Origin: Promethearchaeia archaeon
Lineage (GTDB): Archaea; Asgardarchaeota; Lokiarchaeia; Sigyniarchaeales; SOKP01
DNA: 35,010 nt
Reading direction: 5' to 3'
Assembly (NCBI GenBank): GCA_029856155.1
Contig: JAHQWL010000054.1
Location: 1-35,010, forward strand
In this document: in pieces, positions 14,513-19,850 of the stretch
Numbering within the stretch: position 1 is the first letter of the stretch
Layout: each line of letters starts with the position of its first letter
Notes under the pieces: generated by a model
Databases searched by the model: none
What the model was told of the DNA's origin: nothing
What the model saw: only the letters and a program-made list of their open reading frames with translations
Position numbers and translations under genes: made by a program

Positions 14513-15073
14513 CTAATCCTCAATAATAAGAACATCCTCATCTTCTTCCTCTTTTTCCTCAACTTTTTCCTCAGTAATATTGAGTTCTTCCTTAATATCA
14601 GCCATCGATTTTTTTTTGAACAATTCAGATGCCTCTAAACATGGGGGATAATTAAGAGGATCATCAGGGTTGGGATTTTCTACTAAGCTTTTAAGGGCTT
14701 TAGCAGTTGTTTCTAAATCAGATAATCGGGACCATTTTTTTAAGACGTTAAGACAAATGTATCCCGTACCAGAACCCCCAGGAGAAGTTTGAACAGGATG
14801 AATATTAGGATGAAAAATATTTGTTAACCAAGAAAAATCAATTCCACCGGGATATGGAAATGACCGATTTATTTTTAAGAAAATTCGGTGAGATCTTTGG
14901 GGCACTAATTCTTCCTTATTTTTGATGAGACCTAATGCTTTAATATTTATTGTGAATTCAATACTAGTTTCTCCTTTAATAATTGTATTTTCTTCTAACA
15001 CATTTAATTTATTAATATTCATGAGTTCATTTTCAATTCTATCTTTCCAAATTTCATAAGGCAGTTCTGGCAA
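14513..15073 (-). CDS. Ubiquitin-conjugating enzyme E2 (UBC)
   Basis: FPY, IFHPNI, GYICLNVLKKWS catalytic Cys, LVENPNPDDPLN; TTG start preceded by GAGGGGT. Confidence 0.93.
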   Translation of the reverse strand: MPELPYEIWKDRIENELMNINKLNVLEENTIIKGETSIEFTINIKALGLIKNKEELVPQRSHRIFLKINRSFPYPGGIDFSWLTNIFHPNIHPVQTSPGGSGTGYICLNVLKKWSRLSDLETTAKALKSLVENPNPDDPLNYPPCLEASELFKKKSMADIKEELNITEEKVEEKEEEDEDVLIIED

Positions 15074-15194
15074 TTCTTTTACCCCTCTATATCATTTTTA
15101 AAAATTAAATCATAATTATTATTGATTTTTTGTTTATTATTTTTTATGTTTTTATTATTTTTTAAATTTCAATATTTTATTTACATAGAACTAC

Positions 15195-16079
15195 TCAATT
15201 TCTTTTATCGTAAGAACATGTCCAACAATCGGGATTCTTCAACTTCTCAACAACCCTAAATGTATTTAATAATCCATTATAATTTAGTTGTTTACCAATC
15301 AAAGGTTTACCTATATAAGAATTCCAATTACCATGTTCTTTAAAATAATCAATTCCTAAGATAAATTTTAGTACTTGCTGTGATTGTAGACCACCAATAA
15401 TTGAGGTTGTTGTTATAATTGTTGCTATCTTTGCAATTGTCTCACCGTCTACACCTTGAATTTCTTGACCGGTGCATGAAAATTTTTTCCACATTAAATC
15501 AAGGTCAGAATTAGAAATACTACATTGTAGACATGCTGCATCTTTTTCTTCGGAATAAACTGCTTGAATACTACCAAAGAACTCTTCAATTCCCGAATCT
15601 ACAAAAGGAACTCCATAGAAGTATGCATAGTTATTAGCTTGTAATCTCGCTTCGACATTGTCGAGACATGAACAAATAACATCAGATTTTTGGTAGAGAC
15701 TTTTATCAATATCATTTAAATCCTTTTTAATGGCTACAATTTCTGTATCAGGATTTAATTCTTCGCATGCATTTTTTACCACATCAACTTTATAATCTTT
15801 ATTTTGAGCACTCTGACGGTTAAATAACACACATCGATTTAGATTTGAAATATCTATGAAATCATAATCGATTAATATCAATTTTCCAATACCTGTTAAC
15901 ACTAAATTTTTCACTACTTCATTTCCAGTAGCACCGACACCAATAACCATAACTGTTGCATTTGAAATTTTGTTTTGATCCCACCCACTAATACGTTTTT
16001 GACGATCAAACTTATCCGTGTCTATGGATTCAAGACCATAAACTTTTAATTCCTCAGTTTTTTTTTCTCTACTTGGCAT
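15195..16079 (-). CDS. Ubiquitin-activating enzyme E1 (ThiF/UBA family)
   Basis: FDRQKRI, GVGATG, DYDFIDISNLNR, CLDN, Zn sites CLQC/CWTC, putative catalytic KFSC. Confidence 0.93.
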   Translation of the reverse strand: MPSREKKTEELKVYGLESIDTDKFDRQKRISGWDQNKISNATVMVIGVGATGNEVVKNLVLTGIGKLILIDYDFIDISNLNRCVLFNRQSAQNKDYKVDVVKNACEELNPDTEIVAIKKDLNDIDKSLYQKSDVICSCLDNVEARLQANNYAYFYGVPFVDSGIEEFFGSIQAVYSEEKDAACLQCSISNSDLDLMWKKFSCTGQEIQGVDGETIAKIATIITTTSIIGGLQSQQVLKFILGIDYFKEHGNWNSYIGKPLIGKQLNYNGLLNTFRVVEKLKNPDCWTCSYDKRN

Positions 16080-16098
16080 TTATATGATATTTGCAAGG

Positions 16099-16599
16099 TT
16101 ATTTCGAATTTATATCAAGAATTGCATAATTCACTTCTTTATAACCCTTTTCGGTATTTTTATCCAGAGTAAAAAATTGTAAATCATCTCTTATTGGATC
16201 AACAACTAAAGCTACTTGATATGATTCAGGAAAAAAATAAACTTGAGTTTTTAAATCAGTTTTTGATAAAAAACATCCAAAATTAGGATGAGAATGCCAC
16301 CAGCCAACAACTCTTAGACTATCATCTGCACTTCTTTTTTTCAATCTTCGAAATTTTTTCTCATATTTTCCCGCAGCACCCTCAATTTGAGCTGTTGAAT
16401 ATTTATCACTATGGATTGCACCTAAAAGAAAAAGAAGCTCCTTAATTTTTACATAAACTATTTCATTCCATTTCAAGATATTACCAATTAGATATCCAAA
16501 AATCTCATTTTGAAAATTTTTACATAGGAGTTTGATTTTTACCAAGACATCTTCATTGATATATACAGGAAATACAAAATTTTCATCAAATTTCATCAT
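16099..16599 (-). CDS. JAMM/MPN+ metalloprotease (Rpn11-like deubiquitylase)
   Basis: EIFGYLIG ... [19 protein letters not shown] ... ALVVDP. Confidence 0.93.
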
Positions 16600-16604
16600 A
16601 ATCT

Positions 16605-17525: not shown

Positions 17526-17664
17526 AACAGAATTTTAATTTTCTCTAACGATAAATAAATTCTTATTTTTGACTTTAATTTTCCATATGTTTTTTATAAA
17601 TATATGTAATATATTTTCGAATACCTTAGATATGTAATCTTCTTATTTTTGAACATAAACTCTT

Positions 17665-18561
17665 TTAAACTTGCTTACTTTTTATTTTTTCTACGATTGA
17701 AATTCTTAACATTTCACTAATTATCTCAAAAATCTTGTCTTTAGCATCTCTTTTTATTGCACAGAAACCATATGTTTGAATTCCAAACATTTCTTCTATC
17801 TTTTCTGGTTCATATGATGTACTCTGTAAATCTTGGAAATTGGCTATAAGATAAAAATCGGCTTTCTTAACTTTGTTTTCTAATTGAGAGAATAATCTTT
17901 GGGTTCTACCTAAATTACTTGCACCTGAATTCGTAACTATGCAAATTACATCAACTGAATCTAATAAAGGTCTGTGAATTTTTGAATTTTTAATTAAATC
18001 TTCCAAATCAAATTCGCGTAAAACAACCTCATTTATTGTTTTTAAATTGGATAAAGGAATTGACTTCTGTATAATTTCATTTAAATCCTCATCTAATTCT
18101 AAAACAGTCTCTCCTTCAAAAAGATTGATAATAGTCGTTTTCCCAACGCCTAGTTCCCCTACCAATAATATTTTTGGTGGTATGAAAATATACTCTTCAG
18201 CAAATTCATCGAATACTTCAAATCTTCCTGTTTCACATTTCCAATTTTTTAACTCATCGTAAAATTGTTTAATAAACTCATTTTTCATTAATTCTAATTT
18301 TTCTTGCGCTTCTTCTTCAGGATCATCTATATCTGTAACAATAATGAACATACATAACTTTTCTTCATCATAAGTATACACAAAATTGAAGTTTCTGAAA
18401 TTCAAAGATTTTATCTCCCCTCCGCCAATTTCCTTTGCAATAGTACTAATAGCTGTGAGGAATCCGCTTACTAAATCGTAGTCTATGTCATCACTTCCCA
18501 CAAAGGTTTTTGAATAACAAAGTACTCCATTAGCCATAATTATGAGTATTTTAGATATCAT
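17665..18561 (-). CDS. Longin-domain + degenerate small GTPase fusion (copy 2)
   Basis: LVSGFLTAI longin signature; GELGVGKTT, ANFQD, FCAI. Confidence 0.85.
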   Translation of the reverse strand: MISKILIIMANGVLCYSKTFVGSDDIDYDLVSGFLTAISTIAKEIGGGEIKSLNFRNFNFVYTYDEEKLCMFIIVTDIDDPEEEAQEKLELMKNEFIKQFYDELKNWKCETGRFEVFDEFAEEYIFIPPKILLVGELGVGKTTIINLFEGETVLELDEDLNEIIQKSIPLSNLKTINEVVLREFDLEDLIKNSKIHRPLLDSVDVICIVTNSGASNLGRTQRLFSQLENKVKKADFYLIANFQDLQSTSYEPEKIEEMFGIQTYGFCAIKRDAKDKIFEIISEMLRISIVEKIKSKQV

Positions 18562-18685
18562 TTTAGATTTCTAATTTTATTCTATTAATAATTAATTTAA
18601 TAATAGTTTGGTTGATTATTTAAAATAACTGTGCGGAATTAATATAGTGATTATTCGTTTTATATTTATATAATGGTGAAATTAT

Positions 18686-18859
18686 ATGAATGAGGAAAAA
18701 AACGATTCAGAATCAAATGATCAAGATCATCCAACAATAATATCTTCTGAAGATCGAGAAATTAAGCAACAGAAGCCCCCGAATGATAAGATTATAAATT
18801 ACAAAATCGTAGAAGAGAAAGATAATTCAAATTCAAAAGATAATCAAGCAATAAATTGA
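18686..18859 (+). CDS. Small (57 aa) hydrophilic hypothetical protein
   Basis: ATG..TGA ORF MNEEKNDSESNDQDHPTIISSEDREIKQQKPPNDKIINYKIVEEKDNSNSKDNQAIN, with GGTGA SD-like site and TTTATATA upstream. Confidence 0.45.
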   Translation: MNEEKNDSESNDQDHPTIISSEDREIKQQKPPNDKIINYKIVEEKDNSNSKDNQAIN

Positions 18860-18902
18860 ACAATACTAATTCATTTTATAAATTTTTAAAAATACTAAAA
18901 AG

Positions 18903-19850
18903 TTAGTCTACTATAATAATAATATCATCATCTTTTTCTCTTTTGGAATCATCAAGTACTTTATTGGAAACATTTTGTTTTTTAAGAATTGATTTACTAA
19001 CAATTTCTTTTATAATTTCATAAATTTTTTTTTCAGCTTTTTTTGCTATTGCTGAAATACCATAAGTTTTTACTCGAAAAAATTCTTCAACTTTTTCAGG
19101 TACATGAGATGTATTAAAGTCTTGGAAGTTAGCGATTACGTAAAAATCTGCCTTTTTTATTTTTGGTTCTATTAATGAGAATAACCTGTGAGTTTTACGT
19201 AAATTCATTCCTCCGGAATTAGTAACAAAACAGATAATATCAACAGAATCTAAAATGTGCTTATAATTATTTATATTATCAACTAAATCTTCCAAGTCAA
19301 ATTCCCTAACAATAATCTCATGAATATCTTTAAAATCCGGCAAAGGAATTGATTTTTGTACAATGTCGTTCATGTCTTCATCTAATTTTAAAATTGTTTC
19401 TCCGGGAAATAAATCCATAATAGTTGATTTACCTACTCCTGCTTGCCCTACTAATAATATTTTAGGAGGAATAAAAATGCTTTTCTCAACAAATTCATTA
19501 AAGCTTTCAAATTTAGCAGTATCATAATCCCAATTTTTTAAATCATCACGATATCTTTTAAAAAACTCCATTTTAAGGAATTCTAATTTATGTCTTACGT
19601 CTTCTTCCGGATCATCAATATCAGCTACTATTATGAATATCCAATTTTTCTCATAATCGAAAGTATAGACAATGTTGAAATTTCTAAAGTGTATGGATCT
19701 TATTTCCCCACCTCCAATCTCTTTTGCTACATTATTAATTGCTGTGAGAAATCCACTTATAAAATCTTCATCTATATTTTCATCGTTAATGAATGATTTT
19801 GAATAACATAGAACTCCACTAGATTTTATAATTAAGATTTTCTCTATCAT
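18903..19850 (-). CDS. Longin-domain + degenerate small GTPase fusion (copy 3)
   Basis: FISGFLTAI; GQAGVGKST, ANFQD, ISAI; acidic tail DDDIIIIVD. Confidence 0.85.
   Translation of the reverse strand: MIEKILIIKSSGVLCYSKSFINDENIDEDFISGFLTAINNVAKEIGGGEIRSIHFRNFNIVYTFDYEKNWIFIIVADIDDPEEDVRHKLEFLKMEFFKRYRDDLKNWDYDTAKFESFNEFVEKSIFIPPKILLVGQAGVGKSTIMDLFPGETILKLDEDMNDIVQKSIPLPDFKDIHEIIVREFDLEDLVDNINNYKHILDSVDIICFVTNSGGMNLRKTHRLFSLIEPKIKKADFYVIANFQDFNTSHVPEKVEEFFRVKTYGISAIAKKAEKKIYEIIKEIVSKSILKKQNVSNKVLDDSKREKDDDIIIIVD

Follow-up and report, generated by a model that had tools for sequence, protein, structure and literature searches.

A common acidic-aliphatic tail on the E2 and a longin-GTPase of an Asgard archaeal gene cluster: a candidate docking motif for a ubiquitin-like modifier

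Introduction

Why should two unrelated proteins encoded in one gene cluster, an E2 conjugating enzyme and a GTPase, end in the same handful of residues? The question is raised by a stretch of 35,010 nucleotides (the window) from a Promethearchaeia archaeon (assembly GCA_029856155.1, contig JAHQWL010000054.1, positions 1 to 35,010), whose genome comprises 4.1 Mb at about 30% G+C and whose proteins find homologs under the names Promethearchaeota or Lokiarchaeia. The window encodes a ubiquitin-like modifier (Ubl), its E1, E2 and JAMM enzymes and three longin-GTPases. A sequence-only reading of it had proposed that the C-terminal tails of the E2 and of the third longin-GTPase (copy 3) are peptides resembling SUMO-interacting motifs (SIMs), by which both proteins bind the Ubl or a common partner. 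The tails, their distribution among archaea and the identity of a possible receptor are considered here.

Two tails in one gene cluster

The E2, a UBC-fold protein of 186 residues (14513..15073, minus strand; Pfam UQ_con, E = 2e-10), ends in ...EEKEEEDEDVLIIED (EDEDVLIIED), and copy 3, of 315 residues (18903..19850, minus strand; weak longin and P-loop matches), ends in ...REKDDDIIIIVD (DDDIIIIVD). The E2 tail occupies residues 169-186 (14516..14569, minus strand) and consists of an acidic linker, the core V181-L-I-I184 (14522-14533) and a terminal E-D. In copy 3 the tail (18906..18974, minus strand) runs through ...KREKDDD to the core I310-I-I-I-V314 (18909-18923) and a final D, and extends some 17-23 residues beyond the end of copy 2, its nearest paralog. 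The composition that the sequence-only reading had described, acidic residues followed by aliphatics and a terminal acid, is thereby confirmed for both proteins.

Six-frame translation of the genome gave 10,300 stop-to-stop open reading frames (ORFs) of at least 60 codons, and a C-terminal [DE]{2,}[ILV]{4,5}[DE]{1,3} was found in exactly two of them, the E2 and copy 3, members of one gene cluster separated by about 4 kb; loosened versions of the pattern brought in only unrelated, non-acidic ends. The likeness of the two tails is beyond chance. Gene conversion between them was considered and rejected, the likeness at the DNA level being no greater than common codons require. An exact DNA pattern for DDIIIIDD-stop produced 6 matches in 400 Asgard genomes, all of them in E2 genes. 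Within the genus, DDDIII was located on E2s (9) and on copy 3 (4 loci in 3 genomes, including the window's own), and the remaining matches comprised three within or near the end of large ORFs (L098, L100, L106) and one in a 30-residue ORF fragment. Apart from those few, no carrier of the acidic motif other than the E2 and copy 3 was found in the genome or the genus.

Both tails are conserved in orthologs, as the earlier proposal required. A tail of the form [DE]n-[IV][ILV][IV][IVL], followed by 1-5 mostly acidic residues, is kept in 117 of 120 E2 homologs (58-99% identity), with exactly two residues after the aliphatic run in 108 of these 117 (1, 3 and 5 were also seen). The linker is acidic, residues -30 to -7 being about 48% D or E, and its sequence varies freely, so that the four aliphatic positions are much better conserved than the linker that precedes them. 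All 11 orthologs of copy 3 (64-99% identity) retain DDDI[IT]I[IFYV][VIL][DN], and about 100 homologs of copies 1 and 2 end approximately 17 residues sooner, without a tail. AlphaFold2 prediction of the window E2 from a 144-sequence alignment gave a mean predicted local distance difference test score (pLDDT) of 85.5, with a confident UBC core and values below 50 for residues 169-186, in keeping with the claim that the tails lie beyond the folded domain. Low pLDDT combined with conservation therefore marks the E2 tail as a conserved disordered appendage that is not docked on the E2, and the lack of any predicted docking on the E2 itself makes autoinhibition by the tail, or a folded extension, less likely.

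The tail motif in other archaeal operons

When representative proteins were searched exhaustively, the tailed E2s emerged as a tight family; the next relatives (27-44% identity) are without an acidic tail and frequently finish in P-[KR]-[IV]-[IVL], in some cases with three tandem copies. A further 80 JAMM-E1-Ubl-E2 loci were collected from Micrarchaeota, Thermoplasmata and Methanomassiliicoccales, Aigarchaeota-like, Bathyarchaeota and Asgard genomes, and nearly every E2 among them ends in a short aliphatic (psi-psi) motif, which is acidic-flanked in the Asgard clade and of the form P-[KR]-psi-psi elsewhere, the basic flavour being the commoner. The two versions fall in the same columns of a MAFFT alignment. 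The acidic flavour is limited to the Asgard clade, a Sigynarchaeum E2 and an E2 labelled Bathyarchaeota having the same flavour, and arose separately in locus L011 and in the fusion protein P0266. Outside the Asgard clade its distance from the C-terminus is 0-12 residues, and some E2s have the motif in repeats (three PRVVS in P0327, three copies in P0263). Some E2s from Methanomassiliicoccales/Methanoplasma (L048, L052, L070, L078) lack P[KR]psi-psi and have a common end F-[ED]-A-[ST]-[IV]-x-[YF]-G-[GD] instead. Locus L031 has two tandem E2 paralogs (5351-5926 and 6001-6519), each with PP[AM]IV followed by SGP[KQ]I-type tail motifs.

The motif is not confined to E2s. In L011 the E2 ends in TEDDIILIEII (motif EDDIILIEII) and is followed by two genes for single-pass membrane proteins, which bear DEPSIIEVI and three tandem QQENDDPTIIEVI (DDPTIIEVI copies) in their N-terminal tails. 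In L012 an E2 with GPRIIG, GPRIVS and SRIVR is followed by a gene for a membrane protein with GPRIVSI, GPRIL and SPKIISI occur in a RING-like protein encoded upstream, and the E1 N-terminus contains ...HPKILEI; in L016 the E2 ends in RPKIIFER and the next ORF (65 residues) starts MEKTKPRIIG. Over the 54 loci whose E2s have no acidic tail, 18 of 210 genes lying no more than two genes from the E2 had an N-terminal P[KR]psi-psi, compared with 11 of 585 farther away (odds ratio 4.9, Fisher p = 4e-5, a value that is optimistic because the loci are related to one another), and a control with the reversed motif gave 2 of 210 and 11 of 585, respectively. Proteins of 55 residues encoded directly 3' of the E2 in Micrarchaeota (L036, L067, L091, L093) carry the motif (MDKPRVVGVKALVLEERAPP...), as do the JAMM N-termini of 11 Thermoplasmata-type loci, where P[KR]-psi-psi is mostly followed by a PP pair 10-15 residues on. 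Thus the suggestion that unrelated proteins of one locus have the same linear motif has held for the window and has been widened, as the motif is conserved and disordered and recurs on neighbours in distant archaeal operons in an operon-specific flavour. The idea of a linear motif common to proteins of one locus is well supported, and it is extended here to a family-wide feature of archaeal E2 operons.

The N-terminal peptide of these JAMM proteases, whose genes lie just downstream of the E2 (L039, L043, L056, L060, L063, L081, L082, L085, L094), is conserved and in two parts, RPKIVGETKRPLEEKEPP being one example. Both halves, the second of them E-x-PP, are common to the 55-residue proteins of Micrarchaeota and to the membrane proteins in L011 and L012.

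The modifier as candidate receptor

The Ubl is a protein of 85 residues (14228..14485, plus strand) encoded convergently to the minus-strand enzyme genes; it reads MRISVEDSRTGKLIKLDVK... and ends VIGGS, the di-glycine being followed by a single residue (VIGG-S). No Pfam match was obtained for it, and its profile matches ubiquitin (E = 2e-7 for single ubiquitin) and not SUMO; a weak match to Rad60-SLD was confined to the distant Ubl of L011. Residues R9, K12, K15, K19, H21, H22, R26, K33 and H34 of its beta2/alpha1 region are nearly invariant. The Ubl is far better conserved (74-100% in 120 homologs, P0387-P0506) than the enzymes (58-99% for the E2), and zero to about six variable residues follow the di-glycine in its homologs.

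Two lines of evidence point to the Ubl as the receptor of the tails. The first is the variety of carriers: the E2, the JAMM protease, a RING-like protein, an E1 and putative clients have the Ubl as their only obvious common ligand. The second is charge. The Ubl was located by profile in 78 loci and divided into regions, and net charge was averaged for each class of tail. In the acidic-tail class the mean was +2.2 for beta2, +0.2 for alpha1, +0.1 for beta5, -0.9 for beta1 and -3.3 for the middle region, as against -2.3, -2.9, -3.2, +1.2 and +1.5, respectively, in the class with basic tails or none. The charge of beta2, alpha1 and beta5 therefore opposes that of the tail, and beta1 and the middle region shift the other way. 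Alignment to ubiquitin places its solvent-facing beta2 positions T14 and E18 at K15 and K19 of the window Ubl, and position 18 is Glu in nearly all Ubls that accompany basic tails. Acidic tails arose at least three times (in the Asgard clade, L011 and P0266, the last of which was left out of the tree of locus E2s), each time together with a beta2 that is less acidic, or basic, relative to the relatives compared. The net charge of the E1 moves with tail flavour in the non-complementary direction (rho = +0.44) and that of the JAMM protease shows no correlation with it; opposite charge is thus seen on the Ubl face and not in the net charge of these two enzymes.

From these observations we infer a receptor, a mode of binding and a functional consequence. 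The two tails would be copies of one short linear docking motif, belonging to an ancient family on the C-terminal tails of archaeal E2s, with the Ubl as receptor, a reading to which we give an even chance. Binding would take the form of a strand added by the aliphatic residues to the free edge of beta2, in the beta2/alpha1 groove of the Ubl, with the acidic flanks paired to the invariant K12, K15, K19, H21, H22 and R26. On the E2 such a tail would capture or position the Ubl, either aiding transfer from an E1 that has no ubiquitin-fold domain (UFD) or holding a donor or acceptor Ubl. On copy 3 it would recruit the Ubl-charged E2 and make this GTPase a preferred substrate or, alternatively, would let copy 3 read Ubl conjugates; either role would couple the GTPase trio to the conjugation module. 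In Caldiarchaeum the E2 undergoes auto-mono-ubiquitylation on a C-terminal lysine (PMC5654768), and this fits with a tail that meets the Ubl.

Several observations weigh against the Ubl as receptor. The covariation of charge rests on approximately three independent transitions, the L011 Ubl retains E at the end of beta2 although the tail is acidic, the Ubls of the Aigarchaeota-like group are near neutral, yet the tail is basic, and the comparison is uncorrected for whole-proteome differences in charge between phyla. With so few transitions, a partial fit in L011 and no control for proteome-wide charge, the covariation is only suggestive. A natural Ubl-E2 fusion, P0266 (tail EDEIILMDEE), was folded with AlphaFold2 as a single-chain stand-in for a complex of Ubl and tail, and residues 240-255 had pLDDT below 50 and formed no strand, an outcome that speaks neither for binding nor against it. 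In the 14 acidic-tail loci (13 Asgard-clade or Bathyarchaeota loci and L011) the acidic motif was found on no neighbour of the E2 besides copy 3. Finally, the motif of the Asgard clade lies almost always exactly two residues from the C-terminus, a near-fixed register that is untypical of a SIM and in which the free carboxylate could be recognised. The proposal that the tails bind the Ubl or a common partner has accordingly gained indirect support for the Ubl from the diversity of carriers and the opposite charge of the Ubl face.

Fusions of this kind, Ubl(GG)-E2, occur naturally in P0266, P0278, P0327, P0261 and P0255 and in loci L030 and L095, so that release of the modifier requires cleavage from the E2 to which it is fused. 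P0241, of 352 residues, consists of two E2s in tandem.

Alternative explanations

On the sequence evidence the most economical receptor is, at roughly even odds, the Ubl, and the next candidate is the E1 (15195..16079, minus strand). Docking on the E1 would let the E2 tail stand in for the usual contact between UFD and E2, in the manner of the Uba5-Ufc1 and Atg7-Atg3 peptides, and copy 3 would compete with, or regulate, loading of the E2. This enzyme is a ThiF-type adenylation domain of only 294 residues, and no UFD was matched by Pfam after the ThiF domain, the match to which covers residues 30-286. A dimeric E1 could account for tandem motifs, and the finding that the Caldiarchaeum E1 and E2 form a stable complex (PMC5654768) keeps the alternative alive. 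However, the net charge of the E1 changes in the same direction as that of the tail, and the motif is carried by JAMM, small and membrane proteins, the E1 of L012 itself having the N-terminal HPKILEI; docking of such varied carriers on the E1 is less economical, and we consider it unlikely.

Rather less probable still is docking on another shared hub, either the E2 core, with autoinhibition or oligomers relieved by the neighbours, or a cellular machine, for instance a proteasome or Cdc48-type ATPase, at which the E2, the JAMM protease and clients would be brought together. The diversity of carriers would suit a hub, and the strict two-residue register of the Asgard clade recalls C-terminal docking peptides, but in the AlphaFold2 model, built from a deep alignment, the tail is left undocked from the E2 core, and the conserved operon encodes no such hub. 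In other clades, moreover, the motif lies at a variable distance from the C-terminus or at N-termini, and a free carboxylate is therefore not generally needed.

It is improbable that the tails are EEVD-like peptides bound by the neighbouring protein with two winged helix-turn-helix domains and tetratricopeptide repeats (wHTH-wHTH-TPR; 19919..21820, minus strand), which would then sense or sequester the E2 and copy 3. The gene for this protein adjoins that of copy 3 in the window and in L009, a TPR protein is encoded two genes from an acidic-tailed Ubl-E2 fusion in L015, and both tails end in acidic residues. The E2 tail is nevertheless universal in the clade, yet the tailed E2 of L007 has no TPR gene within 10 kb; in addition, between 1 and 5 residues follow the aliphatic run, and basic-flavour motifs are found at N-termini.

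Least probable of all is a generic polyacidic E2 tail of the Rad6/Cdc34 type, binding basic partners electrostatically, to which copy 3 has converged through low complexity, an explanation that would accommodate the acidic linker and an A+T-rich genome abounding in Ile, Asp, Glu and Lys codons but not the better conservation of the aliphatic positions, the confinement of the pattern to two genes among the ORFs of the same composition or the basic-flavour relatives that keep the aliphatic core without an acidic run.

Organisation of the locus

The conserved core in relatives is JAMM-E1-E2 with a convergent Ubl; L009 and L010 also have the three GTPases and the TPR gene alongside, and L007 does not. 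The JAMM/MPN+ protease (16099..16599, minus strand; Pfam JAB and Prok-JAB) is likely to be the enzyme that both processes and deconjugates the Ubl. The longin-GTPase genes follow on the minus strand as copy 1 (306 residues; 16605..17525) and copy 2 (298 residues; 17665..18561), both without a tail, and copy 3, a young paralog that is 61% identical to copy 2. Across this trio (16605-19850) the P-loop is canonical in copy 2 (GVGKT) and copy 3 (GVGKS) and reads GVGKKS in copy 1, and in all three NFQD replaces the guanine-specificity motif NKxD.

On its other side the Ubl is flanked by genes for a protein of 438 residues with two predicted membrane segments (11999-13315, minus strand) and a small membrane protein of 86 residues (13874-14134, plus strand), and the acidic motif is absent from both. 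Between these lies a Cys-rich, RING-like frame (13518-13847, plus strand) in which no ATG, GTG or TTG precedes the first CxxC, the listed ORF starting at a GTG at 13617. Its candidacy as a conserved E3 was rejected, and with it a conserved place in the operon: 12 further acidic-tail loci contained nothing comparable when searched by Cys pattern, and in L007, L009 and L010 the small ORFs next to the Ubl proved unrelated to it.

Significance

Short linear motifs that read ubiquitin-family modifiers non-covalently are regarded as an elaboration of eukaryotes, and full-text literature searches found no description of the tail or the motif. A motif common to an E2, a deubiquitinase and neighbouring clients would, if it does bind the modifier, make motif-based recognition of modifiers older than eukaryotes. 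It would also offer a simple sequence handle for the substrates and effectors of archaeal ubiquitin systems, which are still without substrates, and would nominate the longin-GTPase as the first predicted client in this Asgard lineage. A bolder and decidedly tentative extension is that the motif is an ancestral, portable ubiquitin-interacting strand that sits on the E2 tail and is copied to deubiquitinases, E3-like proteins, E1s and clients of the same operon, its charge co-evolving with beta2 of the modifier. In that case the Asgard DDIIIIDD might be a prokaryotic counterpart, possibly a forerunner, of the eukaryotic SIM, the LC3-interacting region (LIR) and the UFM1-interacting motif (UFIM), and would wire the cascade to a longin-GTPase. 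The label of a SIM precursor, which the sequence-only reading had offered, is not established.

Comparison with known systems

The EEVD peptides at the C-termini of Hsp70 and Hsp90 are bound by TPR carboxylate clamps. The window tails share with them an acidic extreme C-terminus, and a TPR protein is encoded next door, but in the tails the distance to the C-terminus varies, other clades have N-terminal motifs and the TPR gene is not syntenic throughout the clade.

In class II E2s such as Cdc34/UBE2R and Rad6/Ubc2 the UBC core is followed by a disordered polyacidic extension, on which the binding of partners depends. The window E2 has such an extension too, but the Cdc34 and Rad6 tails have neither a conserved terminal aliphatic tetrad nor copies on other proteins of a gene cluster. 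A profile of the E2 matches solved UBC structures, many of them eukaryotic and Rad6 among them, with similar E-values (1e-15 to 1e-20) and no preference for Cdc34 or Rad6; the closest relatives found are archaeal, and the tree was built from locus E2s.

The enzymes of the Atg8 and UFM1 cascades, whose E1s are non-canonical and have no UFD, use short, often acidic-flanked terminal peptides, and the modifier is captured by strand addition at beta2; examples are the C-terminal tail of Atg7, the Atg8-interacting motif (AIM) of Atg3 and the UFM1-interacting sequence (UIS) of UBA5. No homology of the enzymes is implied by the comparison, and the LIR/AIM and UFIM/UIS peptides need an aromatic residue whereas the core of the window tails is purely aliphatic. 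The E2 core has no aromatic residue, whereas an LIR/AIM has one at position 1 of [WFY]xx[LIV], and in some copy-3 orthologs F or Y occurs at position 4 only.

By pattern the tails resemble the SIM, which is defined by a tetrad with at least three V, L or I residues, an acidic or phosphorylatable flank and a disordered context (PMC12751080). The window tails have a four-residue core of V, I and L (VLII in the E2 and IIII(V) in copy 3) and an acidic flank (EEEDED and DDD before the core, ED or D after it), a feature in which their basic-flavour relatives fail, and the E2 tail is predicted to be disordered when unbound. SIMs often lie at the ends of proteins or in tandem, they add a strand beside beta2 with lysines of the modifier meeting the acidic flank, and they are found on E3s, substrates and effectors. 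The differences are that the modifier of the window is ubiquitin-like and not of the SUMO family, that the commoner archaeal flavour is the basic P-[KR]-psi-psi and that the Asgard motif is fixed two residues from the C-terminus. The SIM reading has therefore stood as regards the pattern, which agrees with the SIM definition, and not as regards the modifier or the prevailing flavour. As the modifier is ubiquitin-like and the basic flavour commoner, the tail motif is filed as an analogue of the SIM and not as a member of that class, and its sequence would suit, at best, an archaeal analogue of SIM, LIR or UFIM recognition.

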